Part shown: piece after piece, positions 3,271 to 64,000 of the stretch
Layout of the letters: every line of letters starts with the position of its first letter
How positions within the stretch are numbered: position 1 is the first letter of the stretch
Assembly: GCA_017464565.1 (NCBI GenBank)
Contig: JAFTZH010000035.1
Location: 213,838-277,837, forward strand
Origin: Clostridia bacterium
GTDB taxonomy: Bacteria; Bacillota; Clostridia; Oscillospirales; CAG-272
DNA length: 64,000 nt
Direction: 5' to 3'
The notes under the pieces: generated by a model
Database searches by the model: none
What the model saw: only the letters and a program-made list of their open reading frames with translations
What the model was told of the DNA's origin: nothing
Program-made: the position numbers and the translations under genes

Positions 3271-3339
3271 CGCATTGATTCCTTTCTTATTTGAAAAATT
3301 ATTTATTAATATTTTTATTTAAAATATTACGAGATTAAA

Positions 3340-5691: not shown

Positions 5692-5721
5692 AAAATTACT
5701 CTCCTTTCATCGTTTTTTCTC

Positions 5722-5750
5722 TTGACATCAACTGCTTTGTATGATATTAT
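5722..5750 (+). promoter_or_regulatory. SigA-type promoter TTGACA-17-TATTAT
   Basis: TTGACA at 5722-5727, a 17-nt spacer and TATTAT at 5745-5750, upstream of the oxidoreductase gene. Confidence 0.55.
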
Positions 5751-5770
5751 AATGCTGTAATATTCAAATT

Positions 5771-5790
5771 AACTAACCGTTTGGTTAGTT
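5771..5790. promoter_or_regulatory. second copy of the AACTAACC-GTTT-GGTTAGTT operator core
   Basis: Identical 20-mer to 2641-2660. It lies 20 nt downstream of the -10, within the divergent region between 5691 (minus gene) and 5846 (plus gene). Confidence 0.6.
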
Positions 5791-5845
5791 TATATTTAAA
5801 AAAATTATTCCCTGATTTTTCAAATCACAAGGAGGGGTTAAACAA

Positions 5846-6700
5846 ATGAAAAAAATCGCTATCATCGGAACTGAAAATTCTCACGCTTCCGCTTTCGCAA
5901 ATCTGCTTGCGAACAACGAAAAGGTCAAAATCATCGGAGCTTTCGGAACCGAGCCCGAGGCAAATCAGCGCTTCAGTGAGAAATTCGGCATAGACTGCTC
6001 TGCCGCATCCGCGGCGGATTTTGCGGACGAGGTTGACGGAGTTATGATAACCTCACGAAAAGGCTCCACACATTTTGACAGCGCTCTTCCCTACCTTACC
6101 GAAGGAAAGACGGTATTCATCGACAAGCCCATCACGGTAGACGTAGGTCAATCGCTCACGCTCGCGCATATCGCGAAGGAAAACAACGTCAAGCTCTGCG
6201 GAGGCTCCTGCCTCAAATACTCCGAGGTACTCGCGAAGCTGAAACGCGAAATAGCTCGAACCGAGGAGGACGTGTGCGCGGCTAACTTCTGCGCTCCCGT
6301 CGAGCTTGAAAGCCCTCACGACGGATTTTTCTTTTACGCCCAGCACCTCGTCGAGATGTGCCTCTCGGTTTTCGGAAACGGCGTGAAAACGGTTTACGCC
6401 GTAAGATGCGGAGATAAGGTTTGCGCCACGCTGAATTACGGAAGCTTCGCGGCTACGCTTTCATTCGGAAGCAACATATATCATACCACGATAGTTTTCC
6501 GCAATTTTGAGAGACACGCGAATATAAACAACGTCGTAAAGCTTTACGCCAACGAGCTGAATTATTTTCTGTCTCTTCTCGGCGGAAGAAAAATGAGATA
6601 TTCTTACGACGAGGTAATTTTCCCCGTAATAATACTGAACGCGATAAACGATTCGTTCAGAACCGGAAAAGAGATAGCCGTACCCGATATCCGTAGTTAA
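5846..6700 (+). CDS. Gfo/Idh/MocA-family oxidoreductase (short)
   Basis: 284 aa with a Rossmann N-terminus MKKIAIIGTENSHA and an FIDKP motif. RBS GGAGGGG. Confidence 0.65.
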   Translation: MKKIAIIGTENSHASAFANLLANNEKVKIIGAFGTEPEANQRFSEKFGIDCSAASAADFADEVDGVMITSRKGSTHFDSALPYLTEGKTVFIDKPITVDVGQSLTLAHIAKENNVKLCGGSCLKYSEVLAKLKREIARTEEDVCAANFCAPVELESPHDGFFFYAQHLVEMCLSVFGNGVKTVYAVRCGDKVCATLNYGSFAATLSFGSNIYHTTIVFRNFERHANINNVVKLYANELNYFLSLLGGRKMRYSYDEVIFPVIILNAINDSFRTGKEIAVPDIRS

Positions 6701-6784
6701 GTTTACCATACCTCTTCCCTCTTGTCAAGTAGATATTAAAAAGATTAACAAATACCAATAAAAGAATTTTAAGGAGAAAAAGCT

Positions 6785-7834
6785 ATGCTTGAATATTTCA
6801 AGAAAACTCAAAGAGACGCAGAATTTTTTAACGAGTACATATCTCCTCGTCTTCCCGACGAACTTTTCGATATGCACCTTCACGTTACGACCGAAAAGGA
6901 CACCTCGGGTATATCAAAGGAAGCGATAGACAAGGATTGGGCGCTCCAATGCGGTTACGCTATGGACACGGACGACCTCAAAGCCTACTGTTCTACCATA
7001 TGGGACGGCAGAAAGGTATCGGTTACCGCCTTTCCTTTTCCCGTAAGAGGAGTTGACCTCAAATCCGCAAACGTATACCTTGCCAAGCTTCTCAAGGACA
7101 AGGAAAATCTCGAATCCAACGTATCGGTACGCGCCGCCGCTATGGCGATAGCCCCCGCCTTTGATCCCGACGAGTGCGAGCAGCAGCTGCTCGACTGCGG
7201 ATTTATCGGATATAAGCCATACCCCGATCTCGTTTCGGGTGAAAAGGGCGCCGATATCAGCATATTCGATTTTATCCCCGACAGATTTCTCAAAGCGCTT
7301 GACAAGCACAAAAAAGCAGTTATTCTTCACCTTCCGAGAGCGAAAAGAATAGCCGACCCCGACAATATCAAGGAGCTTTTGAGAATGAGACAGGCGTTCC
7401 CCGACGTCAAAATAATCATAGCTCATTACGGAAGAAGCTATAATATAGAAGTCATAGAGAAGGCTTACGCAGAATTCGGAAGCGATATCAACGGATTTTA
7501 TTTTGACAACGCCGCCGTTCTCAATCCCGCGGTACATACCTTTATGCTTGAGCATATTCCGCACGACAGAATATTCTTCGGAACCGATATGCCGATACTT
7601 CTCTGGCACGGAACGCGCACGTGGGAAAACGGAACCTATCACAATTTCTCTCGCGAGACCTTCAAATGGAACTCGGCAAAGACCACCACGCCGGAGGAAG
7701 AGGAGAAGTATACCTTCCTGCTTTACGAGCAGGCAAAGCACCTGCTTGATTCTATCTACTCGATAGGAGGAAGAGAGCTTGCCGAAAAGATATATTGCGG
7801 CAACGCGAAAAAATTCCTCTCGGAAGTACAGTGA
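6785..7834 (+). CDS. amidohydrolase-2-like metal-dependent TIM-barrel hydrolase
   Basis: 349 aa with DMHLH, ILHLPR, IIAHYG and FGTDMP ligand-like motifs. RBS AAGGAGA. Confidence 0.65.
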   Translation: MLEYFKKTQRDAEFFNEYISPRLPDELFDMHLHVTTEKDTSGISKEAIDKDWALQCGYAMDTDDLKAYCSTIWDGRKVSVTAFPFPVRGVDLKSANVYLAKLLKDKENLESNVSVRAAAMAIAPAFDPDECEQQLLDCGFIGYKPYPDLVSGEKGADISIFDFIPDRFLKALDKHKKAVILHLPRAKRIADPDNIKELLRMRQAFPDVKIIIAHYGRSYNIEVIEKAYAEFGSDINGFYFDNAAVLNPAVHTFMLEHIPHDRIFFGTDMPILLWHGTRTWENGTYHNFSRETFKWNSAKTTTPEEEEKYTFLLYEQAKHLLDSIYSIGGRELAEKIYCGNAKKFLSEVQ

Positions 7835-7873
7835 TAATTCTTTTGTAAAAATATATCCTTAAGGAGAAGATTT

Positions 7874-9265
7874 ATGAGAAAAACAATCAAAGCGGGCTTC
7901 CTGCCCTTATACGTAAAAATCTACGACGAAAGCACCCCCGAAATGAGAAAGGTGGTGGACAAATTCGTTTCCGATACCGCAAACAAAATAAAAGCACTCG
8001 GAATAGAGCTTGTCGAAGCTCCCGTTTGCAGAATAAAAAGCGAATTTGAAAGCGCAGTCGCTTCCTTTGAAAAAGAGGACGTAAGCTTTATAATAACGCT
8101 TCACGCGGCTTATTCCCCCTCTCTCGAATCTTACGAGGCGCTCTGCTCCACGTCTCTCCCCATTCTTATGCTTGACACCACGGTAAACTACGAATTCAAG
8201 CCCTATTCCTACGCAGACGGTATGCTCTATAACCACGGTATACACGGAGTTATGGACCTTTGCAATCTCTTGCGCAGAAACAAACGTCAGTACGAGATAG
8301 TTGCGGGATATTTCGGAGAGGAAAATCCAAATTACGAAAATCTCAAAAAGCGCGTTCTTTCTTTCGCGAAAGCCTGCCTTATAAAGCACACTCTTTCTCA
8401 CTCCAGAGTAGGACTCGTCGGAGAGCAGTTTGAGGGTATGGGAGACTTCAGAATATCCTTTGACGACCTCAAAGCCTCGCTCGGAATAGAAGTCGTAAGA
8501 TACGACGAAAGCAATACCGACTATATAAATTCGGTTACCGCAGAGGAAATAGAAGCGGAATATAAGCTCGACTGCGAAAGATTTGACGTAACCGCGGACA
8601 AGGAAACCTACGATTTCTCCGCGAGAGCGTCGCTCGCTGTCCGCAAATGGCTTGATACCGAAAACCTCAACGCCTTTTCAATGAATTTCAAGTCCGCCAA
8701 GAAAGGAACCGGCTTCCCCACTATGCCTTTTGCCGAGGCAAGCATCGCTATGAGCCGAGGAGTAGGCTATGCGGGCGAGGGCGACGTTCTTACCGCCGCC
8801 TTTACCGCCTCTCTTATGAGCGCATTCGACGAGGTATCCTTTACCGAAATATTCTGCCCCGATTGGAAGGACGGCTCACTCTTCCTCAGCCATATGGGCG
8901 AATATAACGTCGCGCTTTCAAGCCCCGAAAAGAAGCCCACGATGGCAGTAAAGGATTTCGTTTTCGGAGACGCCGACAACCCCACCATAGTTCTCGCGCC
9001 CTTCAAGGCGGGACGAATGGTATTCCTCAGCCTCAATCCCGTTGAGGACGGCGGCTTTGAGATATTCTCCGCCTCGGGGGATATGCTCTATACCCCTCAC
9101 GACAATCAGCAAAACTACGTCGTAAACGGTTGGTTCAAGCCCGATATGCCTCTTGAGAGCTTCCTTGAAGCCTACAGCCGCGCGGGCGGAATGCACCACG
9201 CAGTCCTCATTTACGGCGGCAAAGAGGTTGAGGACGTCGTTGAAAATCTCAAAAAGCTTTTCTGA
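7874..9265 (+). CDS. L-arabinose/L-fucose isomerase-superfamily protein
   Basis: 463 aa. The by-eye resemblance rests on GVGYAGEGDVLTAA and a C-terminal beta domain. RBS AAGGAGAAG. A terminator follows the stop. Confidence 0.55.
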   Translation: MRKTIKAGFLPLYVKIYDESTPEMRKVVDKFVSDTANKIKALGIELVEAPVCRIKSEFESAVASFEKEDVSFIITLHAAYSPSLESYEALCSTSLPILMLDTTVNYEFKPYSYADGMLYNHGIHGVMDLCNLLRRNKRQYEIVAGYFGEENPNYENLKKRVLSFAKACLIKHTLSHSRVGLVGEQFEGMGDFRISFDDLKASLGIEVVRYDESNTDYINSVTAEEIEAEYKLDCERFDVTADKETYDFSARASLAVRKWLDTENLNAFSMNFKSAKKGTGFPTMPFAEASIAMSRGVGYAGEGDVLTAAFTASLMSAFDEVSFTEIFCPDWKDGSLFLSHMGEYNVALSSPEKKPTMAVKDFVFGDADNPTIVLAPFKAGRMVFLSLNPVEDGGFEIFSASGDMLYTPHDNQQNYVVNGWFKPDMPLESFLEAYSRAGGMHHAVLIYGGKEVEDVVENLKKLF

Positions 9266-50850: not shown

Positions 50851-50879
50851 TTGACAAACCGTTTCGTTTGTGTTATCAT
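50851..50879 (+). promoter_or_regulatory. rplJL promoter TTGACA-17-TGTTATCAT
   Basis: TTGACA at 50851-50856 and TATCAT at 50874-50879, preceded by TGT. TTTTTGCAAAAA lies directly upstream at 50836-50847. Confidence 0.6.
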
Positions 50880-51046
50880 ATCTAATGTTATCCAAAGACA
50901 GCAGGTTTCCGTAAAAGCTATGCTTCCCTGCCGAGGAGAGATTTTAAATCATTTTGCTTTATATCTTTCTTCGCGCAAAGCTGTGCCTTTCGGAAGAAAG
51001 ATTTTTTATTTTCCTGCTCATTTCACATTTGGGAGGTGAAAAACAA
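50880..51046 (+). ncRNA. ribosomal protein L10 leader (autoregulatory attenuator) candidate
   Basis: A leader of about 165 nt lies between the promoter and rplJ. It contains the terminator hairpin TCTTTCTTCG..CGGAAGAAAGA (50964-51001) plus TTTTTTATTTT. The position and architecture match the Firmicute L10 leader, but the sequence was not checked against a model. Confidence 0.55.
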
Positions 51047-51669: not shown

Positions 51670-52047
51670 ATGGCATCTGAGAAAATCACAAACATTCTTG
51701 AAGAGATTAAGTCTCTTACGATACTTGAGCTTGCTGACCTTGTAAAGGCAGTTGAGGAGGAGTTCGGCGTATCCGCTGCTGCTCCCGTTGGAGTTGCCGT
51801 TGCGGCAGGCGCTGCTGCTCCCGCAGCTGAAGAGAAGACCGAATTTGACGTTGTTCTTAAAAGCTTCGGCGCTAAGAAGCTTGACGTTATTAAGGCTGTT
51901 CGCGAGATCACCGGTCTCGGTCTTAAGGAAGCTAAAGAGATGGTTGAAGGCGCTCCCAAGAACGTTAAGGAAGGCGTTTCCAAGGACGAGGCTGAGAGCA
52001 TTAAGAAGGCTCTCGAAGAGGCTGGCGCTGAGGTTGAGGTTAAGTAA
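51670..52047 (+). CDS. rplL: 50S ribosomal protein L7/L12
   Basis: 125 aa with an Ala-rich hinge and the C-terminal pattern [22 protein letters not shown]. Confidence 0.95.
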
Positions 52048-52386: not shown

Positions 52387-53781
52387 TCAAGCGTTGTGAA
52401 CGCCTATTGAAGCATCGGATTCCGAATCTATGCCGTACTTCTTTGCTTTTCTGTACTCAAAGAATTTAAGGGCGACCTGCTCGAAGAGCGCATAGGAGAG
52501 AACGTCCTCGTCCTGCTCCATATACTGCGGAATCTTCGCGCGCAGCTCATCAAGCTCCGCTCCGAGCTTATCCGCGGGACGGCAGGTAATTCTCTCTGCG
52601 TCTCCGATTATCTTCTTCGCGAACTCGGGGTCTATCTCAACGGGCGTCTTACCGTACTGACCCTGAATAAGTCCCTTGAATTCCTTCGTTACCATTTTGT
52701 ATCTTTCTCCGCCGATAACGTTGAACACCGCCTGCGTTCCGACTATCTGCGAGGAAGGAGTTACGAGCGGAGGATATCCCGCGTCGGCTCTTACTCTCGG
52801 AACCTCCTCAAGGACCTCGGTAAGCTTATCCGACTTTCCTGCCTGCTTAAGCTGGGAAACGAGGTTGGAAAGCATTCCGCCGGGAACCTGATATATAAGC
52901 GCGTTTACGTCTACCTTGAGCATCTTGGGGTCGAGCAAGCCCGACTTCAGATATCTCTCGCGGATAGGCTCGAAGTATTTGGTTATCTCGTCAAGCTGTG
53001 CGAGGTCGATTCCCGTATCGTACTCGGTTCCCGCGAGGGTAGCGACGATAGACTCCGTGGGAGGCTGAGACGTTCCCATAGCCATAGGAGATATAGCGGT
53101 ATCAACGACGTCAACTCCCGCCTCGATAGCCTTAAGAAGAGTCATTGAAGCAAGACCCGAGGTATAGTGCGTGTGCATCTGTATCGGTATCTTTACGGTC
53201 TCCTTAAGCGCCTTAACGAGATCGTAAGCGTCGTAAGGCTTGAGCAAACCTGCCATATCCTTGATACAGATGGAATCCGCTCCCATCTCCTCAAGAGTTT
53301 TGGCGTAATTTGTATAATATTCGGTTGTGTATACCTCACCCGTAGTGTAGCTTATAGCCGCCTGAACGTGTCCGCCCTCTTTCTTGGTTGCGTTTATAGC
53401 GGTCTTGAGATTTCTCGGATCGTTGAGAGCGTCGAAAATTCTCAAAATATCTATTCCGTTAGCGATAGATTTCTGAACGAAATATTCAACCACGTCGTCA
53501 GAATAATGACGGTAGCCGAGGATATTCTGTCCTCTGAAAAGCATCTGGAGCTTGGTATTCTTTACGTTTGCGCGTATCTTGCGAAGTCTTTCCCACGGGT
53601 CCTCGTTGAGAAAGCGCAAGCAAGAGTCAAAGGTAGCGCCGCCCCACGCCTCAAGCGAGTGGTAGCCTATCTTGTCAAGCTTTTCAAGTATCGGAAGCAT
53701 CTCTTCCGTTGTCATTCTCGTAGCGACGAGCGATTGGTGCGAGTCGCGGAGAACGGTTTCTGTTATCTTTACCTGTGCCAT
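52387..53781 (-). CDS. oxaloacetate decarboxylase alpha / transcarboxylase 5S-type carboxyltransferase, without biotinyl domain
   Basis: 464 aa beginning MAQVKITETVLRDSHQSL, followed by an HMGL-like TIM barrel. It ends before any AMKM biotin motif. Confidence 0.8.
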   Translation of the reverse strand: MAQVKITETVLRDSHQSLVATRMTTEEMLPILEKLDKIGYHSLEAWGGATFDSCLRFLNEDPWERLRKIRANVKNTKLQMLFRGQNILGYRHYSDDVVEYFVQKSIANGIDILRIFDALNDPRNLKTAINATKKEGGHVQAAISYTTGEVYTTEYYTNYAKTLEEMGADSICIKDMAGLLKPYDAYDLVKALKETVKIPIQMHTHYTSGLASMTLLKAIEAGVDVVDTAISPMAMGTSQPPTESIVATLAGTEYDTGIDLAQLDEITKYFEPIRERYLKSGLLDPKMLKVDVNALIYQVPGGMLSNLVSQLKQAGKSDKLTEVLEEVPRVRADAGYPPLVTPSSQIVGTQAVFNVIGGERYKMVTKEFKGLIQGQYGKTPVEIDPEFAKKIIGDAERITCRPADKLGAELDELRAKIPQYMEQDEDVLSYALFEQVALKFFEYRKAKKYGIDSESDASIGVHNA

Positions 53782-53800
53782 ATTTACCTCCGTTTAACCT

Positions 53801-55156
53801 TTAAAACCACGACAGGAACACACCTGCCGCTACCGCCGAGCCTATAACTCCGGCAACGTTGGGTCCCATCGCGTGCATAAGAAGGAAGTTTGAGGGATCC
53901 TCACTCTGCCCTACCTTCTGTGAAACTCTTGCCGCCATAGGAACTGCGGATACTCCCGCAGAACCGATAAGGGGATTTATCTTTCCGCCCGTCAGCCAAT
54001 TCATTATCTTTGCGGTGATAAGTCCGCCGCAGGTCGATATACAGAACGCTACGAGACCGCACGCGATAATAATAAGCGTTTCGACCTTAAGGAAGTTTGC
54101 GGCGCTTGCCGTAGCTCCTACCGATATACCGAGGAATATCGTAACGATATTCATAAGCTCGTTCTGCGCGGTCTTTGAAAGCCTGTCGGTTACTCCGCAG
54201 ACGTTGAGCAGGTTACCGAACATAAGACAGCCTACGAGCGGTACCGCGTCGGGAACGATAAGTCCTACGATAAAAGTAACGACTATCGGGAAAATTACCT
54301 TTTCTACCTTTGAAACGGTACGAAGCGAGGTCATTTTTATCTGACGTTCCTTCTTGGTAGTAAGCAGCTTCATAAAGGGAGGCTGTATCAGCGGTATGAG
54401 AGCCATATAGCTGTAAGCCGCGATAGCGATAGCTCCGAGAAGCGCCGGCGCGAGCGTCTTTGTAACGAGAATTGCCGTAGGTCCGTCAGCTCCTCCGATA
54501 ATACCGATGGAAGCCGCCTCCTGCGGAGTGAAAAATCCCGAAAGCAGAGCCGCCGCGAAAGCGACGAAAACTCCAAGCTGTGCGCCCGCTCCGATAAGCA
54601 GACTCTTCGGATTGGATATCAGCGGTGAGAAATCGGTCATAGCTCCTATACCCACGAATATAAGACACGGGTAGATACCGAGCTTTACACCGAGGTAAAG
54701 AAGGTCGAGAAGTCCTCCGTCGTGAAGAACCTCGCCGTAATTTACAGACGTCAGGCTTTCCATAAGGGCTTCGTACGTGCTCTCTTGGAATCCGCCCATC
54801 GCAAATTCGGTAAGCGCCTCCATCTCGATTCCGTTATCGAGCAGGATATTTACCGCGTTGGGAACGGAGTCGGGTGTCAGGCTCTGCGCCCCGAAGATAG
54901 CTTCAAGCGCCTCGACCGCTTCTTCGGCAGGTATGAACATATCCAGATGGAACATATTCGCCCCCGGAAGATTCGTCAGAAGCATACCTATCGCGATAGG
55001 AAGCAGGAGCAGAGGCTCGAACTTCTTCACGATAGCGAGGTATACGAGAACGAAAGCAATAACGAACATAATAGCCGTCTGCCACCAATTCTCATCTCCG
55101 AACAGTCGGGCAATGCCTGTCGTACTTAAGAAATTTTTAATACTATCAATAAGCAT
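53801..55156 (-). CDS. Na+-translocating decarboxylase beta subunit (OadB/MmdB/GcdB family)
   Basis: 451-aa polytopic protein with the typical pattern EPLLLLPIAIGMLLTNLP and the C-terminal pattern GAADGPTAI. Confidence 0.85.
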   Translation of the reverse strand: MLIDSIKNFLSTTGIARLFGDENWWQTAIMFVIAFVLVYLAIVKKFEPLLLLPIAIGMLLTNLPGANMFHLDMFIPAEEAVEALEAIFGAQSLTPDSVPNAVNILLDNGIEMEALTEFAMGGFQESTYEALMESLTSVNYGEVLHDGGLLDLLYLGVKLGIYPCLIFVGIGAMTDFSPLISNPKSLLIGAGAQLGVFVAFAAALLSGFFTPQEAASIGIIGGADGPTAILVTKTLAPALLGAIAIAAYSYMALIPLIQPPFMKLLTTKKERQIKMTSLRTVSKVEKVIFPIVVTFIVGLIVPDAVPLVGCLMFGNLLNVCGVTDRLSKTAQNELMNIVTIFLGISVGATASAANFLKVETLIIIACGLVAFCISTCGGLITAKIMNWLTGGKINPLIGSAGVSAVPMAARVSQKVGQSEDPSNFLLMHAMGPNVAGVIGSAVAAGVFLSWF

Positions 55157-55206
55157 TTCCTACTGTTTCCTTTCAATAAAATAATTTAACTTTCTTTGAA
55201 AGAAAA

Positions 55207-55623
55207 TCAGTTGAGAGTTACGAGAACGGCGTCGGTCTCAACGGTTGCGCCCTGCGCGACCTCAACGCTCGCCACTACTCCGTCGGAAGGAGCGCAAACG
55301 TCGTTCTCCATCTTCATAGCCTCAAGAACTACGAGGACGTCTCCCCTCTTGACAGCTGCTCCTGCCTTTACGTTAACCTTGATTATATTGCCGGGCATAG
55401 GAGCCTTAACGGTAACGCTGCCTGCCGCAGCCTTGGGAGCGGCGGGTGCCGCTTTGGGTGCTGCTGTGGGAGCGGGTGCTGCTGTGGGAGCGGGTGCCGC
55501 CGCAGGTGCGGGTGCGGGCGCTGCTGCGGGAGCAGAAACGGGTGCGGAAGCGGCGGATGCGCCTACCTCCTCAACGTCAACAGTATAGGTAACGCCGTTT
55601 ACGGTTATATTATAAGTTTTCAT
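55207..55623 (-). CDS. biotin carboxyl carrier subunit with Ala/Pro linker
   Basis: 138 aa with the EAMKMEN biotinylation motif and an (AAPAPT)n linker. Confidence 0.85.
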
Positions 55624-55655
55624 TTTTTATACCTTAACCTTTCAATTTTATCTGT

Positions 55656-56063
55656 CTATTTCTTATTCCAGGAGCGAGCCGCGCCTGCTCTGCGGAAGGA
55701 TACCACTCTGAAGCTTCCGTCGGGAACGCTGTTTCCCGTCTCCTCCGCCATATAAGCGGCAACTGCGGCGGTGATAACGGCGATAAGCTCGTCGTCCGAC
55801 GTATTGACCGCGGGAGTTACAACCGTCTGCGGAACGGTATTTACAACGGGAGCGGGGGATTCGGTCTTTACCTTTTTAGGCTCTTTACCCGCGAATATTA
55901 CTTTGAATATCGCAAGCACAGCCCAAAGTATCGCGAGGACCGCAAAGACCATCAACATTCCGATAAGCGTCATCTGACCCGCGTATATCCATCTCTCGGC
56001 GGAAAACGCTCCGCCGAGAGAGTCAGTGCTCGAGCTCACAGCCAACGCATAATTGTTTACCAT
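55656..56063 (-). CDS. OadG-family small membrane subunit of Na+ decarboxylase
   Basis: ATG 56063 follows GGAGG, so the TTG 56081 in the track is probably too long. It has a single TM helix (MTLIGMLMVFAVLAILWAVLAIF). Confidence 0.7.
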   Translation of the reverse strand: MVNNYALAVSSSTDSLGGAFSAERWIYAGQMTLIGMLMVFAVLAILWAVLAIFKVIFAGKEPKKVKTESPAPVVNTVPQTVVTPAVNTSDDELIAVITAAVAAYMAEETGNSVPDGSFRVVSFRRAGAARSWNKK

Positions 56064-56077
56064 ATCAGACCTCCGAA

Positions 56078-57448
56078 TCAAAGAGGCATTACGGGGTGTT
56101 TGCGCGAGGGCTTATCCTCAGCCTTAAACGCAAGCATTGAGAGAGACGCGCATATTCTCTTGCGAAGCTCGGACGCCTCTATAACGTCGTCTATTTCTCC
56201 GCAGTCCGCCGCGTCTGCCGCGGAGGCGCACTTTTCTTTCCACTCCGCCTCTACTTCTTCTCTGCTCTTTTCCCCTACTTTATCGTTCCATACGAAAGCT
56301 ACCGACGCTTCGGGAGAGAGCACGCTTATGCAGGCGTCATCAAGAGCGTAAGATATATCCGCTCCGAGAGCCTTTGAGCCAAGCAGGGTAAACGCCGCTC
56401 CGTAAGCCTTGCCTACGACCGCCGTTACCTTTGCGTTGCTTGAGGATGCGTAAGATGCCGCGAGTCTTGAAAGCTCGGACGCGTAAGACGCGCTTTCGGC
56501 TTCAAGAGATACGTCAAGTCCCTCGCTGTCAACGAGCGTTACGAGCGGAATGCCGAAGCTGTCGCAGAAGGAAACCGTCTTTGCGGCAACTCTTGCCTCT
56601 TTTATACCAAGCTTTCCGCAAAGCGCAATAACTCCCGCCTTTATTCCTCCGAAGGAGGCAAATCCGACACATATATCGGAGGCGTATTTTTCATAGGCTC
56701 TTACGAACTCTCCGTTGTCAGAAAGCTCACTTACAAGCTCGCTTACCTTATAATTTTTCGGGTCGAACGAGACCTTTCTGTTTATATTATCGGTAATTTC
56801 CTCCGAAACCGCGCCTTCGGCGTTATTCTGAGGAATAAGCTTCAAAAGCTTCTTTATATACGATACCGCGTCTGCCTCGCTCTCACACTCCGCAGCCGAC
56901 GCTCCGACCGATGCCGCAAATTCGCTCTTGCCCGCGTCTCCACCGACAACAAAGGGCGAGTTAACGTACAGCTTGGACTTGTCTTTTACGGTAACGGTAA
57001 GATCGAACATAGACGCTATAACGGCAGAGGAACCGCCGCAAACTCCGTCTATCAAAGCTATCTGCGGAATTATTCCCGACGCCTCGGAAACGCATTTCAT
57101 AACCCTTCCGTACGCCGCAAGTGCCGCCGCACCGTCGTAAACGACTGCTCCCGCGCTGTCAAAAACGCCTATAATCGGCGCTCCGTTCTTTACTGCCAAC
57201 GAATACGTATCGGCAATTTTTTTCGCGTGGCGTTCACCGAACGCGCCCTTCGTTCTTCCGCTGTCCTGCGCAAACGCAAACACGAGACGTCCGTCGACGG
57301 CTCCGTAGCCGCAGACAACGCTCTCAAAGTCCTCGGAAGACGCAGAACGTCTGGTATACGCGCCAAGCTCGACAAAAGTTCCGACATCAAAAAGAGACTC
57401 TATTCTCTCCTTTGACACTCCGTACACTTTTTCGTCAATCTGTACCAT
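56078..57448 (-). CDS. acyl-CoA carboxyltransferase (MmdA/PccB/GcdA-like alpha subunit), divergent
   Basis: 456 aa with a carboxyl-transferase fold pattern (GYGAVDGRLVFAFAQD, GVFDSAGA, IALIDGVCGGSSA). Confidence 0.75.
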   Translation of the reverse strand: MVQIDEKVYGVSKERIESLFDVGTFVELGAYTRRSASSEDFESVVCGYGAVDGRLVFAFAQDSGRTKGAFGERHAKKIADTYSLAVKNGAPIIGVFDSAGAVVYDGAAALAAYGRVMKCVSEASGIIPQIALIDGVCGGSSAVIASMFDLTVTVKDKSKLYVNSPFVVGGDAGKSEFAASVGASAAECESEADAVSYIKKLLKLIPQNNAEGAVSEEITDNINRKVSFDPKNYKVSELVSELSDNGEFVRAYEKYASDICVGFASFGGIKAGVIALCGKLGIKEARVAAKTVSFCDSFGIPLVTLVDSEGLDVSLEAESASYASELSRLAASYASSSNAKVTAVVGKAYGAAFTLLGSKALGADISYALDDACISVLSPEASVAFVWNDKVGEKSREEVEAEWKEKCASAADAADCGEIDDVIEASELRKRICASLSMLAFKAEDKPSRKHPVMPL

Positions 57449-57716: not shown

Positions 57717-59081
57717 TCAGTTTTTAAGCGAATGTATCGGCGCGGGTATGCGTCCGCCTCTCGCGATAAAATCGGCGCAGGAATAATCGCTAAGCTTCAT
57801 AATCGGAGCGTAACCGAGAAGTCCGCCGAACACCACGCTGTCTCCCGCCTTCTTACCGTAAGCGGGGATAAGTCTGACGGCGGTAGTTTTGGTATTGGCA
57901 ACGCCTATTGATATCTCGTCGGCGATTATACCGCATATAACCTCCTCGGGCGTATCTCCCGGAATGGCTATCATATCAAGTCCCACCGAGCAAACGGCGG
58001 TCATCGCCTCAAGCTTTTCAAGAGAGAGCGCTCCGCATTCTACCGCGTCTATCATTCCAGCGTCCTCAGAAACGGGTATAAAGGCTCCCGAAAGTCCGCC
58101 GACGTGCGAGGACGCCATAACTCCGCCCTTCTTCACCGCGTCGTTGAGGAGCGCGAGCGCGGCGGTTGTTCCGTGTCCCCCGCACCGCTCTATTCCCATA
58201 GCCTCAAGGATATGCGCCACCGAGTCTCCTACGGCAGGCGTGGGAGCGAGCGAGAGGTCAACGATACCGAAAGGAACACCGAGTCTCTTTGACGCCTCGG
58301 CAGCAACGAGCTGTCCCATTCTGGTTATCTTGAAGGCTGTCTTTTTGATTATCTCGGCGAGCGTCGAGAAGTCGCACTGCCCCGCTCTTCGTATAGCCGA
58401 ATTTACAACGCCGGGACCCGAAACTCCAACGCTTACAACGCTCTCCGCCTCGCCTACCCCGTGGAATGCTCCCGCCATAAAGGGATTATCCTCGGGAACG
58501 TTCGCGAACACGACGAGCTTCGCGCAGCCGATAGATTCCTTGTCTCGCGTCAGATACGCCGTTTTTTTGATAACGCTTCCCATTTTCGCGACGGCGTCCA
58601 TATTTATTCCCGCCTTCGTGGAGGCTACGTTTACCGACGAGCATACAAGCTCGGTCTCTGAAAGCGCGTAAGGAATGGATTCGATAAGATTTGCGGCGTT
58701 CACCGTAAAGCCCTTCTGAACGAGCGCGCCGTATCCTCCGATAAAGTTTATACCGAGAGTATGCGCCGCTCTGTCAAGCGTTTTGGCTATGCGGACGTAA
58801 TCCTCGGGCGAATATTTTCCGCCTACGAGAGATATCGGAGTTACCGACACTCTCTTATTGATTATCGGAATCCCCAGCTCCTTTTCGATATCACAGCCCA
58901 CGCTGACGAGGTTCTCCGCCGTCCGCGTTATCTTATCGTATATTCTGTCGCAAACGACGCTTACGTCGTCGGAAGCGCAGTCGTAAAGAGAAATTCCCAT
59001 CGTTATCGTTCTGATATCAAGGTTTTCCTCTTTTATCATATTTATAGTTTCAAGAATATCGTTTACGTTAACGTTTATCAT
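57717..59081 (-). CDS. PFL-like UPF0210/DUF711 family protein
   Basis: 454 aa with [14 protein letters not shown]. Confidence 0.75.
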
Positions 59082-59091
59082 TTCGCCGCCC

Positions 59092-59361
59092 TCAGATTCT
59101 GTGCATAGAATTGAAGATATCCTCGTGCATAGTGCGTATGTCGAGGCTGTTTTCTTCGCCGAGCTTTCTCATAGCGTCGACGAAATCGGTAAACTGCATA
59201 GTGATATCGTCTATATCTATGACCATTATCATAGCGAAATATTCCTTAAGCACGCTCTGGGATATCTCGGTAATATTCGCTCCAACCTCGGCGCACTTCG
59301 CGCTGACCTTGGCAATTATTCCTTTATTGTCGTGTCCGACTACTGTTACAACAGCTTTCAT
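59092..59361 (-). CDS. ACT-domain protein (UPF0237 type)
   Basis: 89 aa beginning [20 protein letters not shown]. Confidence 0.8.
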
Positions 59362-59411: not shown

Positions 59412-59440
59412 ATTATAACAGCTTTCGGGAAAAATTTCAA
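59412..59440 (-). promoter_or_regulatory. promoter TTGAAA-17-TATAAT for the ACT/DUF711 operon
   Basis: The -35 is the complement of 59435-59440 and the -10 is the complement of 59412-59417. Confidence 0.55.
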
Positions 59441-59457
59441 TAGAAAAAAAGCGAAGA

Positions 59458-59481
59458 GCGGCAAGAATTTTTTCCTGCCGC
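59458..59481 (-). terminator. hairpin terminator after the giant ORF
   Basis: GCGGCAAG-N8-CCTGCCGC, with a T7 run a few nt downstream on the minus strand. Confidence 0.45.
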
Positions 59482-59490
59482 CCAAGCTTT

Positions 59491-62400
59491 TTATTTATTT
59501 TTGTTCTCCACGTATTCGGCGTTTCCTTCAATCACCGCCGTACCGCCCGTCAGGGATATCATTTTGACGGCGTTCGCGCTGAAGCTCTGCGCCTTTACAA
59601 CGAGAGGCTTGTTTATCTCTCCGCGCGCAAGCACCTTAAGGAAGCAAGCGCTTTGCGGAACGAGCTTCTTTTCTTTAAGCTCGGCGAGCGATACCGTATC
59701 TCCCGACTCAAAATTATCCGATATGGTATCTACGTTTATAAAGGTCTTTTTACAGCCGCGGCATATCTCGGGTCCTTCCTCGGAATGAACTATCATTTCC
59801 GCAATCTCACTGTCAGAGATAAGGGTATCAGCCTCCTCCGCGCTCACAGAGTCGAGTATTACGGGAAGATGCGCAGCGGTATCCTGCGTATCCTCCTCGG
59901 AAGCAACGTCCTCCGAAAACGCCTCCTCACCGAATTCTTCGGCAGTCTCCTCGTTTGTCTCTTTAGCCGCGTCAAGCAAACGCTTCGCCGCGAATACTAT
60001 ATAAACCGCGAGCAGTACGTCCGCCGCCGCAAGAACGCACACGAGTGCGATTCCCGCCTTGGGAACTATCACCTTAAGCGCCGCCGAGGGCAAGAGCATA
60101 ACCGAAAGAAGCGTTCCGCGCTTTTTATTGGCAGCTATCGTCAGCACTACGGCTGCCGCCGCTTCTATCAGCGCCGCTATTCCGAGAATTATTATGACGG
60201 GGGTAAGATTTAGCGTTTTCTCACCTACTATGACGAATTCCGAGAAATGCTCGGTTTCGAATACGAGGAACGCCCCCTCGATACTCGCGTCGTAATATTC
60301 CGCTCTTCCGTCAGCCGCAAAGTATATAGCGGCGGGGCGGCTTATGTCTCTCATATCCGAGGGCAAAAGCACCTTGACGGTATATTTTCCCGAAAACTCG
60401 TCGTACAGAACGCTCTGTCTGATAAGCTTTATATCGATAACGCCCCTGATAACCGAATCCTCAAGTATATCGGCAAGCTCCTTGTCGTTCAAGGCGTTCT
60501 CTCCGAAATAAGCTATACTTGAATTTTTAATCGCGTACTTAAGAGCTTCCGAATGTGCGGAGGAAGCATCCTTGACGGAAACTCCGAGCTTTACGTCCGA
60601 GCTTATTCCGTTGCTTCCCGAGACGACCGCCCAAAGACCGTCGTCGTAATCAAAGCCCGCGGGATAATCGGTATATCCGCTGTTATTCGGAGTCAGATTT
60701 CCGCTGCTCACCCAATCGACCTTTACGCTCTGCATAAGAGCTATTCTTTCGTCCGCAAGCTTTTGTATATATTCCTTGCCCTTGGATTTATCAGACAGCT
60801 CTATCTCGCTGACGGTGCGCTCGTATATCTCCTTGACACTCGTGAAATTCTTCTCCGAATACCTGTCGGATATTTTTTCAAGAGCCTCGTAAGCGTCCTT
60901 CAAGCGCTGTATAACGTCGCTCTTTACATCCTCAAAATCGGTGCTTACCGCAGACATATCGGCAAAAGCCGTCTCCATTATCTCTCCAAAGGTCTTTATG
61001 TCGCTTCCCTCGTCAAGAAGCTTCATCGCCTTTTCGTAAGCTCCCTTTATTATATCGTACTTTTCCTTGGTATAGTCGGCGGAGTTGAATTCGTTGAACT
61101 TACTCTCTACCTTATTCTTTATATCTTCTCTCGCGTTCTCGAGATTCTGTGAAACCGTGGTTTCCGCGCTGTTCTCAAGAAGTCCGAGAGCCGTATCTCT
61201 CTTGGTTTCAGCGGCAGAGACGTCGGCTGACGAATCTATATCGCTCAACGCGGCGGAGAGAATATTCTGCACGGCGGCTTTAGCCGCTTCGGTCTCCGCG
61301 TCTAAAAGATATTCCAGCGCGTCGATAACCGACGTGATTTCGTCGGCTTTAGCCTGAACCTTTTCCTTTGCGGCAAGCTTTGCGTTTTCAAAATTACGGC
61401 TTTCAGCCTCGTACTCTATCTCGGCTGCCGCCAATCTGAAATTAATCCACGCGGTTTCCGCGTCCGCTACGGTATTTGCCGAAGCCAGCTCGCTCTTGGC
61501 GTCAAGCACCAGCGCGTCAAGCTCGGACTTCGCTTGGGCTTTATAGGCGGAGTCAAGATAGCCAAGCCACTTATTCATTCCGCCCAGCGTTTCACCCGCC
61601 GAATTATCAATGGTTTCGGCGTAATGCTTCTTCGCGGCTGAAACGTTTGCGGTATCCGAAGCCGTATCGAGAGCGGCCGACTCGGCGGAATAAGTCTCAA
61701 GCGCACCGAGAACGCCGTCTACACTGTCGGCACTGTCAACCGACGTATTAAGCTTGCTTATAATCTCCTGCGCGTCCTCCAAAAAAGCGGAACGGACAGT
61801 ATCGTCGATATATTCGAGAGCATTTATTTTTGATTTGAGAGCGGTATCGGCTTTCTGTGCCTCTGACTTTGCCGACGCCTTGGCGTTGGTAAGATTTTTA
61901 CTCTCCGCCTCGCCGTATATAACGTCTGCCTGCGAAGCGTAACTCTCTGCCATATCCTCTATCTCACTCACGTCGGTCATAGAGGCAATACTCTGCTTCG
62001 CGCTGTCGGCTGCGTTCGATATTCTTTCCTCGTAAGCCGTTTTATCGGCGGCTTCAATATAATCCATATCCTTAACGCCGTCGATAAGTTCTTTCTTCTT
62101 ATCGTCTATCGATTGAGAATGATATTCTTTCGCGCGGGCAACGTTCTGCGCGTTCGCGTCGTCGTACGCGTTCTTCGCGCTTGTCCCGAACGCAAGCACC
62201 GCTGAATCCACGCCGGCAGTTCCCGAAGCGGTCTTCATTGAATTGATCGCCGACGCCAAAGCGTTATCAAGCGCCGTCTCCGCGCCCGTAATATCGGCGG
62301 GCTTAAGATATTCAAGAAGAGCTATGTCCTTCTTGTAGCCGTCTATTACCGCAGACATCTCCTCGGTCTTTCTCTGACGGTAAACGTCAAGCTCGGTGTC

Positions 62401-64000
62401 GGATACTATCTCCTCGAGAGCCTCTACCGAATCGGCGTAGTTGAGCGAGGTTACGGCGTTGTCTATCATAGCTTTAACCGCGTCGCTGTCGGAATCGCTT
62501 CTGATAAGATTCAAAAGCGCTTCCGATTCACACCTGCAAAGCTCAAGCTTTGCGGACGCGAGTATCGAATCAAGCTTCGTTTTAATATCGCTTGAGGTAT
62601 GATCCGCCGCGCAGGCTCTGCCAATGTAGGTATCGAGCTTTTGCGAAAGAGCGGTTTTCTCTGCTTCGGAAAAGCTCGGATAATCGCCTGACGAAACTAT
62701 ATCCTCGTACTCGTCTCGTATAAGGAAAGCGGTTTTAGCTTTTTCAACTATATTTTCCGCTTGTAAGATAAACGCGTCTGCCGTATCGAGCGTAAGTCCG
62801 TCTATAAGGTCGGTATACTCTTTTGCCAGCGCTTTCCTTTCGGTTTCAAACTGCGTATCTCCGACAAGAGCCTCTATTTCAAGCGACTTTGCCTTTTTGT
62901 ATTTGGATACAAGATCAGCCGCCTCGTCCGATACCTCGGTCTTAGCCTTGACGCTCAATGCTCCGAAATCGGATATCGCGCTTTTCAGCTCCTGCGCGTC
63001 GGAAGCCGTAACGCCGTCCGCGCTCTTGGCTATTATATCGGCGTGATTTTTCAAAAAGACCTCTACCTCGAAATCGACCTTCAAATCGTCAACCGACGTC
63101 TTCGCGTCTCCGAGAGCGTCTCTTGCCGCCTCAAGCGTTACCGCCGAGCTTATCGCCTCGTCGGTGGGAGCGTAAAGCGCCTCAAGCTGAGATATCGCCT
63201 CGCTTGAATCGAGCGTACCGAATATTTCGGAAACCGCGTCCTTGGAATCCGAAATATAATCCAGCCAATCCACGCGAAGCTTGGCGCGTCCAAGCTCAAA
63301 TTCTATCTCCCGCGCGTCAGAGGCTTCGTCAAATATACCTCCGTCAGAGTTATATTCATTAAGAAGAGAGGTAAGCTTCTCTCCTCTGTCTCCGTCGGGA
63401 AACGCCTCGTCGGCGTATGCCGCGAGCGCGTCCTTCGCTCCCGCCTTGGAAAGCTCCGCTTCAAATCCGTCGAACATAGTACCCGACGTAAATATCTTTC
63501 CATCGGCGTCGGCGGTATTCACCGCGTACTCAAGTGCTCCCACGAGCTTCGTGTGAAGGCTTGCTGTATAGCTTCCTTTAGTATCGTCAATAACCGCGTT
63601 CAGAACGCTCTTCACGGCGGTTTCTATATCCGAGTTAAATCCGCTCACGCTTGAGGACTCCGATATCGACTCCAAAAAGCTTTTTATAGTGTCGTCGCTT
63701 TCGGACTTGGCGGCAAACGAGCCCGCTCCGTATATCTCGTCGTATATCTCTTCAAAGCTTGTCCTTGCCGCCTCTCTCAAAAGCTGCGTCGCCACGTCGT
63801 TTTCAGCCTTTTCGTACACCTCGGAGTAAGACTCCTCCGAAAAGGTTCCCGACGACAGCGCTTCAACCGCGCTTACCGCGTTTTGGGCTATATCCTTTAC
63901 GTCGGCAGAGCTTGCGGAGGAATAAAGTGTTTCTATTTTTTCGGTATATACCGCTCTGCACAGCTCGTGCTTCAAAGCGTTCTCTGCCGCTTCAAGCGAA
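59491..64000 (-). CDS. giant (>1500 aa) alpha-helical repeat membrane protein with a C-terminal cytoplasmic uL15-like domain; N-terminus lies beyond the right edge
   Basis: The frame stays open from 63975 to nt 64000 (..SLEAAENALKHELCR..), so the TTG in the track is not the start. It has a long A/E/D/S/K-rich helical repeat region, a beta-rich module and 2-3 TM helices (nt about 59980-60230). An acidic linker follows, then a C-terminal 75 aa resembling the ribosomal L15 C-terminal domain. Confidence 0.7.
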   Translation of the reverse strand, partial: SLEAAENALKHELCRAVYTEKIETLYSSASSADVKDIAQNAVSAVEALSSGTFSEESYSEVYEKAENDVATQLLREAARTSFEEIYDEIYGAGSFAAKSESDDTIKSFLESISESSSVSGFNSDIETAVKSVLNAVIDDTKGSYTASLHTKLVGALEYAVNTADADGKIFTSGTMFDGFEAELSKAGAKDALAAYADEAFPDGDRGEKLTSLLNEYNSDGGIFDEASDAREIEFELGRAKLRVDWLDYISDSKDAVSEIFGTLDSSEAISQLEALYAPTDEAISSAVTLEAARDALGDAKTSVDDLKVDFEVEVFLKNHADIIAKSADGVTASDAQELKSAISDFGALSVKAKTEVSDEAADLVSKYKKAKSLEIEALVGDTQFETERKALAKEYTDLIDGLTLDTADAFILQAENIVEKAKTAFLIRDEYEDIVSSGDYPSFSEAEKTALSQKLDTYIGRACAADHTSSDIKTKLDSILASAKLELCRCESEALLNLIRSDSDSDAVKAMIDNAVTSLNYADSVEALEEIVSDTELDVYRQRKTEEMSAVIDGYKKDIALLEYLKPADITGAETALDNALASAINSMKTASGTAGVDSAVLAFGTSAKNAYDDANAQNVARAKEYHSQSIDDKKKELIDGVKDMDYIEAADKTAYEERISNAADSAKQSIASMTDVSEIEDMAESYASQADVIYGEAESKNLTNAKASAKSEAQKADTALKSKINALEYIDDTVRSAFLEDAQEIISKLNTSVDSADSVDGVLGALETYSAESAALDTASDTANVSAAKKHYAETIDNSAGETLGGMNKWLGYLDSAYKAQAKSELDALVLDAKSELASANTVADAETAWINFRLAAAEIEYEAESRNFENAKLAAKEKVQAKADEITSVIDALEYLLDAETEAAKAAVQNILSAALSDIDSSADVSAAETKRDTALGLLENSAETTVSQNLENAREDIKNKVESKFNEFNSADYTKEKYDIIKGAYEKAMKLLDEGSDIKTFGEIMETAFADMSAVSTDFEDVKSDVIQRLKDAYEALEKISDRYSEKNFTSVKEIYERTVSEIELSDKSKGKEYIQKLADERIALMQSVKVDWVSSGNLTPNNSGYTDYPAGFDYDDGLWAVVSGSNGISSDVKLGVSVKDASSAHSEALKYAIKNSSIAYFGENALNDKELADILEDSVIRGVIDIKLIRQSVLYDEFSGKYTVKVLLPSDMRDISRPAAIYFAADGRAEYYDASIEGAFLVFETEHFSEFVIVGEKTLNLTPVIIILGIAALIEAAAAVVLTIAANKKRGTLLSVMLLPSAALKVIVPKAGIALVCVLAAADVLLAVYIVFAAKRLLDAAKETNEETAEEFGEEAFSEDVASEEDTQDTAAHLPVILDSVSAEEADTLISDSEIAEMIVHSEEGPEICRGCKKTFINVDTISDNFESGDTVSLAELKEKKLVPQSACFLKVLARGEINKPLVVKAQSFSANAVKMISLTGGTAVIEGNAEYVENKNK

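Follow-up and report, generated by a model that had tools for sequence, protein, structure and literature searches.

How does a globular domain of a ribosomal protein come to stand at the end of a giant exported membrane protein? This question is raised by a gene at the right edge of a 64,000-nucleotide (nt) stretch of DNA from a Clostridia bacterium of the CAG-272 lineage (GenBank assembly GCA_017464565.1, contig JAFTZH010000035.1, positions 213,838 to 277,837), hereafter called the window. An initial annotation, made from the letters alone, had described there an open reading frame (ORF) of more than 1500 codons that runs off the edge and encodes a helical-repeat membrane protein, whose last ~75 amino acids (aa) resemble ribosomal protein uL15. 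Here we follow up this annotation by profile searches, structure modelling and comparison with relatives of the protein. Its overall anatomy is very probably that of a Sec-exported, envelope-spanning surface protein, the sequence features being read directly and the structural ones coming from AlphaFold2 (AF2) models and homology. The cytoplasmic end carries a conserved module with a uL15-derived core, which recurs in a large family of gut bacterial proteins and for which we tentatively propose a ligand in the large ribosomal subunit.

A 1650-codon gene for an exported protein

On the minus strand of the window, no stop interrupts the frame between nt 63999 and the TAA at 59491-59493, which confirms the long ORF as 1502 codons of a 1650-codon gene. 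The peptides quoted in the initial annotation (VKVDWVSSG, FSEFVIVGEK, the transmembrane (TM) strings, NAK..AK..EAQ.KAD....I.ALEY and INVDT...VIEG) are all present in the translation. The whole gene was found at 3272-8224 of a second contig (L001), which supplies the 148 N-terminal codons absent from the window. The full-length protein of 1650 aa (P0001), from a public 'Clostridia bacterium' metagenome-assembled genome (MAG), is 100% identical to the window translation and is named 'uL15 family ribosomal protein' by NCBI. The N-terminus recovered in this way, read from L001 and P0001, is a Sec-type signal peptide with an A-R-A motif, MKNRKIIVVALFALILMTLCGFLGVYARA, followed by AS after the predicted cleavage point. 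By inspection, this signal peptide has no lipobox and a lipoprotein reading was rejected; sortase anchoring was rejected as well, the protein having no LPXTG motif.

On L001, the giant gene lies between a divergently oriented ABC-transporter gene on one side and an ACT/DUF711 gene pair on the other. A promoter-like site is found 42 nt 5' of its start codon, a terminator-like hairpin follows its stop codon, and the downstream ACT gene has a promoter-like site of its own; because of these three signals, the arrangement suggests that the giant gene is monocistronic.

A C-terminal module related to ribosomal protein uL15

The likeness of the C-terminus to uL15, which had been proposed from an alignment by eye, was borne out by profile and structure searches, although the length of ~75 aa was not: the conserved module comprises ~119 aa, in which two short helices with a VSAEEADxLISD motif and a strand precede the uL15-like core. 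Pfam family PF00828 matches this region (window aa 1421-1489, nt 59533-59739) far above chance, scoring 51.6 bits (E=1.3e-13) where the cut-off is 21.5, and was the sole family found in a Pfam scan of the 1502-aa window translation even at E<=1. The rplO model TIGR01071 scores 37.2 bits with the whole protein and 42.1 bits with the 119-aa module, and its cut-off of 77.95 is not reached; the alignment is confined to model positions 74-142, and the N-terminal Gly/Arg/Lys-rich extension (~1-73) is absent. When all PDB sequences were searched with the module profile, the matches were uL15 chains except for one 151-aa chain left unnamed by its depositors, and the best of them were residues 74-142 of Enterococcus, Listeria, Staphylococcus, Mycobacterium and Bacillus uL15.

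The AF2 model of the 119-aa module has a predicted local distance difference test score (pLDDT) of 84.8, and all Foldseek matches of this model at E<=0.001 are uL15 chains, the weaker ones including one pre-60S chain and one eL18-type archaeal chain. Local superpositions of module and uL15 go down to 1.8 Å across 72-79 columns. The two helices and the strand N-terminal to the core are conserved alongside it and, according to the AF2 model, pack on it.

Identity of the core to genuine Firmicutes uL15 C-terminal domains (Enterococcus, Listeria) is 37-40%, with a maximum of 48%, and the LK, KVLA.G, K.LTV.A, FS..A and GG motifs of genuine uL15 are retained. Across 158 representatives of unrelated architectures the mean identity of the core is 58%, and its mean net charge is +2.9, compared with 0 in two genuine uL15 C-terminal domains. 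Some invariant residues of the family are unlike genuine uL15, namely the Arg in KVLARG, the Pro in DKPL, and KMI.LTGG in place of EAIEAAGG. A CRGC motif ahead of the core was considered as a zinc site and rejected, as it is not kept across the family.

Judged from its sequence, the module core is a duplicate of the globular C-terminal domain of Firmicutes uL15 (residues 74-142) that has lost the N-terminal half, the part of uL15 that threads into 23S ribosomal RNA (rRNA). Since this half is absent, the protein is not a ribosomal protein, and its database name is a misnomer derived from the domain.

A large family of module carriers

When 1.84 billion representative proteins were searched exhaustively by profile, with clusters defined at 50% identity, the family came to 2986 clusters below an E-value of 1e-3, 1408 below 1e-10 and 230 below 1e-30; on this scale genuine uL15 would be expected near E~1e-6, a value obtained by scaling the PDB E-values to the larger library. 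Similar C-terminal fusions thus amount to at least 1400 clusters, and the architecture is not unique to the window. The module stands at the C-terminus in all of the best 150 listed clusters, in proteins of 94-1817 aa. Against the family profile the window protein scores 228.8 bits, and it has the family signature of VSAEEADxLISD helices followed by KK..IN.DTIS...LKEK...KVLARG.IDKPL...FS..AVKMI.LTGG. Word-indexed homologue searches gave no more than 3, 6 and 7 proteins; in two of these searches just the 8000 top word-sharing candidates were scored, a list probably taken up by low-complexity words, and the family came into view only with the exhaustive search.

The 159 representatives whose architecture was classified fall into five classes. 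Fifty combine a signal peptide and an ectodomain with at least two TM segments, as the window protein does, and 33 differ from these in having one TM segment only, the scanned members of this class carrying Flg_new or MBG-type beta repeats. An N-terminal TM segment alone is found in 24, with an uncharged tail before it and K/R after it. No TM segment is present in 31, which include full-length soluble proteins of RF39-type genomes that have no signal peptide, and the other 21 have one or more inner TM segments and no N-terminal hydrophobic region, several of them being fragment-like and without an initial Met.

Family members are carried by gut and rumen Clostridia (Eubacteriales, Oscillospiraceae, Lachnospiraceae) and by RF39/CAG-type Bacilli. 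When the gene neighbourhoods of 19 genome loci with family members were clustered together with the window, no partner was conserved beyond close relatives. Phage and plasmid collections gave partial matches only (55-58% of the query, ~40% identical), which resemble genuine rplO in host DNA, one being annotated rplO, and neither PHROGs nor PADLOC had a match for the window protein. On sequence evidence, the family has no visible link to phages, plasmids or mobile elements. Cluster look-ups returned 'ribosomal protein L18E' as the sole product name, and a literature search found no publication on uL15-module fusions or on these proteins. The impression that the protein fits no known system was therefore upheld, there being neither a paper nor a conserved operon partner; the combination of parts is undescribed in the searchable literature, although many members are already deposited in databases, misleadingly named.

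Several relatives have features of their own. Linkers and spacers reach ~600 aa of PAEE/PVEE acidic repeats (locus L009), and extreme spacers between an N-terminal anchor and the module occur at loci L007, L008 and L009 and in proteins P0038, P0083 and P0123. The small soluble RF39-type relatives share a conserved basic start motif (MAKIVLKRKKSDKDTY...) and have ER/K-type charged helices as spacer, and P0027 has two uL15-like domains in tandem (two Pfam stretches, 85.9 bits). An extra basic domain of ~130 aa (Y.RSF.AKLIQ...SYK.VKSR.SW...RGKTL.LYLALDP...KY), absent from the window protein, is present in many other module carriers, among them P0025, P0027, P0028 and P0089 (loci L009, L012, L015). 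Pfam, NCBIfam and the PDB sequences gave no match for it, but in PADLOC it hits the candidate defence protein PDC-S18, over the C-terminal part of that protein (E 1.6e-6 to 3.2e-6). In P0079 and P0097, a module identical to that of L007 is joined to unrelated metabolic-enzyme-like N-termini, probably through assembly or gene-calling chimeras. One family member (L020) comes from a contig that is assigned to a Gammaproteobacteria MAG; the other carriers are all Firmicutes, and this contig is probably mis-binned.

Membrane anchor and topology

Hydropathy, AF2 models and composition recovered all the parts that the initial annotation had placed between the repeats and the C-terminus, that is, a beta-rich module, two to three TM segments and an acidic linker. 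The anchor statistics that follow are based on the 50 representatives in the architecture class of the window protein. In 96% of them the first TM helix (TM1) carries an acidic residue, and its Glu is invariant in alignment A2. The short hydrophobic segment in the middle, which contains two invariant Pro, has a mean best 13-residue hydropathy of 1.78 and is modelled by AF2 as a 13-residue helix at low confidence. In the A2 consensus it is followed by a PxGG-type turn (P-KAG in the window protein), and a P..G-type motif is found near its end in 66% of the relatives. The last TM helix carries an acidic residue in 70%.

The number of Lys plus Arg residues (K+R) averages 3.88 in the 10 aa after TM1 and 3.82 in the 15 aa after the last TM helix, with few K/R in the turn. 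The same polarity is seen in every architecture class, where 15 aa contain 3.1-4.3 K+R after the last TM segment vs 0.6-2.4 before it. This distribution fits a membrane region of three passes, or of one TM helix and a hairpin, either of which would leave the C-terminus inside the cell. A cytoplasmic module, which the initial annotation had assumed, is supported for the whole family because, besides this K+R enrichment, 33 relatives that start with a signal peptide have just one TM segment after the ectodomain, and the full-length soluble relatives have no signal peptide.

The layout of motif, TM segment and basic cluster (window 60061-60201 and the same 50 relatives) recalls protein-sorting signals, but ~160 residues come after it.

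Helical rod and beta-rich module

The predicted extracellular part begins with a rod of ~1200 aa, rich in A, S, E, D, L and K. In the AF2 model of aa 750-1500, helices of ~50 and ~23 residues alternate at pLDDT >90, and self-BLAST aligns aa 767-922 with aa 933-1095 at 30-38% identity with E down to 2.7e-7, giving a repeat period of 166 aa made of two units of ~83 aa; both results agree with the giant helical-repeat array initially described. DNA-level tandem repeats were not detected in the giant gene, and the protein repeats are therefore old and diverged. Along its length, the window ectodomain is homologous to those of 47 other family representatives of 282-1654 aa, many of which vary in the number of middle repeats.

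Foldseek found no match for the rod model at E<=0.001, and TM-scores were low. Its best PDB matches, both weak, were Staphylococcus aureus EbhA (2dgj; E 3.4e-3, prob 0.99) and the helical domain of group B Streptococcus BibA (6poo; E 1.5e-2, prob 1.00); FIVAR, GA and DUF1542 were all missing from the Pfam scan mentioned above. In the model, the rod looks like the helical-rod surface proteins of Gram-positive bacteria, yet it is not a member of them by sequence. Between the rod and the membrane lies the beta-rich module, for which AF2 predicts strands at model residues 523-659. It terminates just ahead of the membrane in an HFS motif, the residues of which (H114, F115, S116) are invariant in alignment A2, and its Foldseek matches are weak ones only, to ZU5 and GH30 beta-sandwiches.

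What the module may bind

In the mechanism that we propose, a helical rod of repeated antiparallel helices and the beta module would stand outside the cell, and a three-segment anchor would hold the protein in the membrane, TM1 contributing a buried Glu, the middle segment two Pro and the PxGG-type turn, and the last helix an Asp. The acidic linker would carry the 119-aa module into the cytoplasm as a docking domain on a tether. There the module may keep the ancestral ligand class of the uL15 part that it retains, docking structured large-subunit rRNA or (pre-)50S particles at the membrane; the surface rod would then be physically coupled to the translation apparatus, or ribosomes or RNA would be sequestered at the membrane. 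That the ligand is large-subunit rRNA or (pre-)50S particles and the protein a membrane tether is a tentative reading, which we rate at somewhat under an even chance. Its extension to a family-wide docking system, in which gut Firmicutes hang a ribosome-, pre-50S- or rRNA-docking module on flexible acidic tethers from many anchors, surface rods included, is more doubtful and on balance unlikely.

That the core is conserved across unrelated architectures and is still close to genuine uL15 suggests that its ligand is universal, strongly conserved and uL15-like. In a survey of protein networks in the bacterial 50S subunit (PMC4881015), the contacts listed for uL15 with uL4, bL21 and bL35 cite residues 8-63 only, and, since all of these protein contacts lie in the part that was lost, rRNA is by that listing the sole known ligand of the part that was retained. 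The core, more basic than the two genuine domains, and the tether-like spacers between anchor and module in relatives (acidic PVEE repeats, ER/K helices) were also counted in favour of an RNA or ribosome ligand. A precedent for the tether is offered by YqjD, ElaB and YgaM, which are membrane-anchored 50S binders (bioRxiv 10.1101/2024.08.16.608256).

Several points weigh against a ribosomal ligand. Acidic flanks (the 13 D/E of the linker and the SAEEAD helices) would disfavour RNA binding, and the residues that are invariant in the family and differ from genuine uL15 (KVLARG, DKPL, KMI.LTGG) could agree with a new ligand or interface. In mature ribosomes the ancestral site is filled by genuine uL15, and the lost N-terminal extension is generally held to provide much of the rRNA contact. 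Ribosome-related genes are not conserved beside family members at the 19 loci or in the window. The three-pass topology comes from the positive-inside rule and homology, and the membrane region is modelled by AF2 with low confidence (46-67).

In the main rival reading, the fold would have been reused, the module being a cytoplasmic protein-protein docking or oligomerisation domain for a new, non-ribosomal partner (cytoskeletal, divisome, secretion or signalling, for example), and the whole an Ebh-like surface rod with a tail for anchoring, localisation or signalling. The family-specific invariant residues, the acidic surroundings and the filled ancestral site on mature ribosomes all speak for it, as does the additional two-helix and strand element that packs on the core in the AF2 model; moreover, S. 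aureus Ebh likewise anchors through transmembrane and cytoplasmic domains (PMC6548404). We regard such reuse as nearly as probable as the tether; against it, the gene neighbourhoods offer no conserved candidate for a partner, and identity of up to 48% to genuine uL15, with high conservation that extends to the small soluble RF39-type proteins, points to a universal ligand and not to a lineage-specific one. A different fate of the module follows if the middle segment does not cross the membrane: under this two-pass topology, it would be extracellular and could, for instance, bind the cell wall or a matrix. Just two of the segments are strongly hydrophobic, and the middle helix is short and of low confidence in the AF2 model, as this topology would have it; however, the basic clusters after TM1 and after the last TM helix, with few K/R in the turn, oppose it, and the 33 single-TM relatives with a signal peptide, the 24 with an N-terminal TM segment and the soluble ones without a signal peptide put the module in the cytoplasm, which makes an extracellular module improbable.

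The remaining two explanations take either the name or the gene structure at issue. A literal uL15-family ribosomal protein, or a paralogue that replaces uL15 in ribosomes, would explain the NCBI name and the PF00828 match above the gathering score, but the TIGR01071 match falls short of its cut-off and covers positions 74-142 only, the N-terminal extension being absent. The protein is, in addition, 1650 aa long with a signal peptide and membrane helices, where a small (~145 aa) soluble protein would be expected, and its gene lies between the ABC-transporter gene and the ACT/DUF711 pair and not in an spc-type operon beside secY. These membership tests effectively refute the literal reading, which we hold to be very improbable. 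As for an artefact, a frameshift or assembly error that joins two genes had been named as a danger in the initial annotation; here it would have fused a surface-protein gene to an rplO fragment, and the only hints of it come from a few other family representatives that look chimeric (P0079, P0097). The identical 1650-aa protein is encoded on a second, independently assembled contig, and the same full-length architecture is present in many assemblies: the cluster of P0012 has 24 members, and 11 of the 15 listed are full-length (1654 aa), with <=5 contigs each. Family members occur at 19 genome loci, and identity of just ~40% to genuine uL15 shows that the module is no misjoined rplO; an artefact can be dismissed as barely credible. 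The reading that we prefer, and hold tentatively, is the membrane tether for large-subunit rRNA or (pre-)50S particles.

Comparison with known systems

With uL15 (RplO; PF00828, TIGR01071), the module shares the C-terminal L15/L18e fold and sequence homology, at 37-48% identity to the Enterococcus and Listeria proteins. It differs in having no counterpart of residues 1-73, in standing at the end of a 1650-aa exported membrane protein and in adding the two-helix and strand element. Of four features that define uL15, the window protein has only the C-terminal fold and lacks the other three. The archaeal and eukaryotic protein eL18 (L18e) gives a weak match to the same core (NF003079, E 2.9e-5 with the 119-aa module; 23.7 bits, far under the cut-off of 85), and the module is clearly nearer to bacterial uL15. 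As eL18 shows, the L15/L18e fold can sit at a ribosomal site other than that of uL15.

Among surface proteins, Ebh (2DGJ) and BibA (6POO) share with the window protein a signal peptide, a C-terminal TM and cytoplasmic anchor and the absence of LPXTG (PMC6548404), and the long extracellular rod of antiparallel helices that is predicted for the window protein may be a further likeness. In contrast to Ebh, the window protein has no FIVAR, GA or DUF1542 matches, its anchor has three segments with a buried Glu and its tail is a folded uL15-derived domain; the structural likeness is weak. Ebh is also far larger than the window protein.

The likeness to YqjD, ElaB and YgaM concerns the proposed mechanism only: these combine a membrane anchor with a cytoplasmic element that binds 50S (bioRxiv 10.1101/2024.08.16.608256), binding by the window module being itself a proposal. 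Their sequence and fold are unrelated, and they are small, C-tail-anchored, mainly proteobacterial proteins with no ectodomain. The window protein has no Pfam match to their family, DUF883, and its orientation is the opposite one, with the anchor N-terminal to the module.

Features of the locus and neighbouring genes

The coordinates of the giant gene, of the parts of its product and of the signals that flank it are collected in Table 1.

Table 1. Positions of the giant gene, its protein parts and its flanking signals in the window
Feature	Position (nt)	Strand	Remarks
Coding sequence, part in window	59491..63999	-	codons 149-1650 of the 1650-codon gene and the TAA stop; start codon and signal peptide beyond the right edge
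Helical-repeat rod (predicted extracellular)	60727..63999	-	P0001 aa 149-1239 in window; rod begins at aa ~31
Internal repeat copy 1	61678..62145	-	P0001 aa 767-922; self-BLAST vs copy 2
Internal repeat copy 2	61159..61647	-	P0001 aa 933-1095; self-BLAST vs copy 1
Membrane-proximal beta-rich module	60214..60726	-	P0001 aa 1240-1410, ~170 aa
TM1	60130..60201	-	P0001 aa 1415-1438; hydropathy score 2.81; conserved membrane-embedded Glu
Basic cluster NKKRG after TM1	60115-60129	-	
Short hydrophobic middle segment	60061..60114	-	aa 1444-1461, TLLSVMLLPSAALKVIVP; two invariant Pro
Last TM helix	59986..60051	-	aa 1465-1486; hydropathy score 2.73; conserved Asp
Basic cluster KRLLDAAK after last TM helix	59962-59985	-	
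Acidic linker (predicted cytoplasmic)	59851..59958	-	aa 1496-1531, 36 residues: 13 D/E, zero K/R
Conserved C-terminal module	59494..59850	-	aa 1532-1650, 119 aa
Terminator-like hairpin	59456..59483	-	12-bp stem, 7 G-C pairs, then T-run; begins 8 nt past the stop
Promoter-like site of downstream ACT gene	59412-59440	-	separate from the giant gene's own site

The genes for an ACT-domain protein and for DUF711 lie directly downstream of the giant gene, at 57717-59361 (-). A DUF711 homologue is also found downstream of a related gene at locus L005, which is probably synteny between relatives and not a functional link. Further along the same strand, 52387-57448 (-) holds a complete Na+-translocating decarboxylase-type set, with carboxyltransferase, OAD gamma, biotin carrier, OAD beta and an HMGL-like/PYC_OADA alpha subunit. 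On the other strand, the TTG start (50954) listed for the rplJ ORF is overlapped by an Rfam L10_leader at 50874-51017 (+; 53.2 bits), so that rplJ probably begins further downstream, and an ORF of 125 aa at 51670-52047 (+) occupies the position expected for rplL.

Significance

In this family, a globular domain of a ribosomal protein was duplicated, lost its rRNA arm and became the fixed cytoplasmic terminus of membrane, surface and soluble proteins of gut Firmicutes, which together make up at least 1400 clusters. The module is small (119 aa) and well folded in silico, and the current annotation as 'ribosomal' is misleading whichever ligand it has. If it binds large-subunit RNA or particles, the family would represent a new means by which Gram-positive bacteria localise, sequester or hibernate ribosomes at the membrane, and proteins such as the one in the window would provide the first physical link of surface rods to the translation machinery; if it binds something else, it would be a clean case of exaptation of a ribosomal-protein fold.

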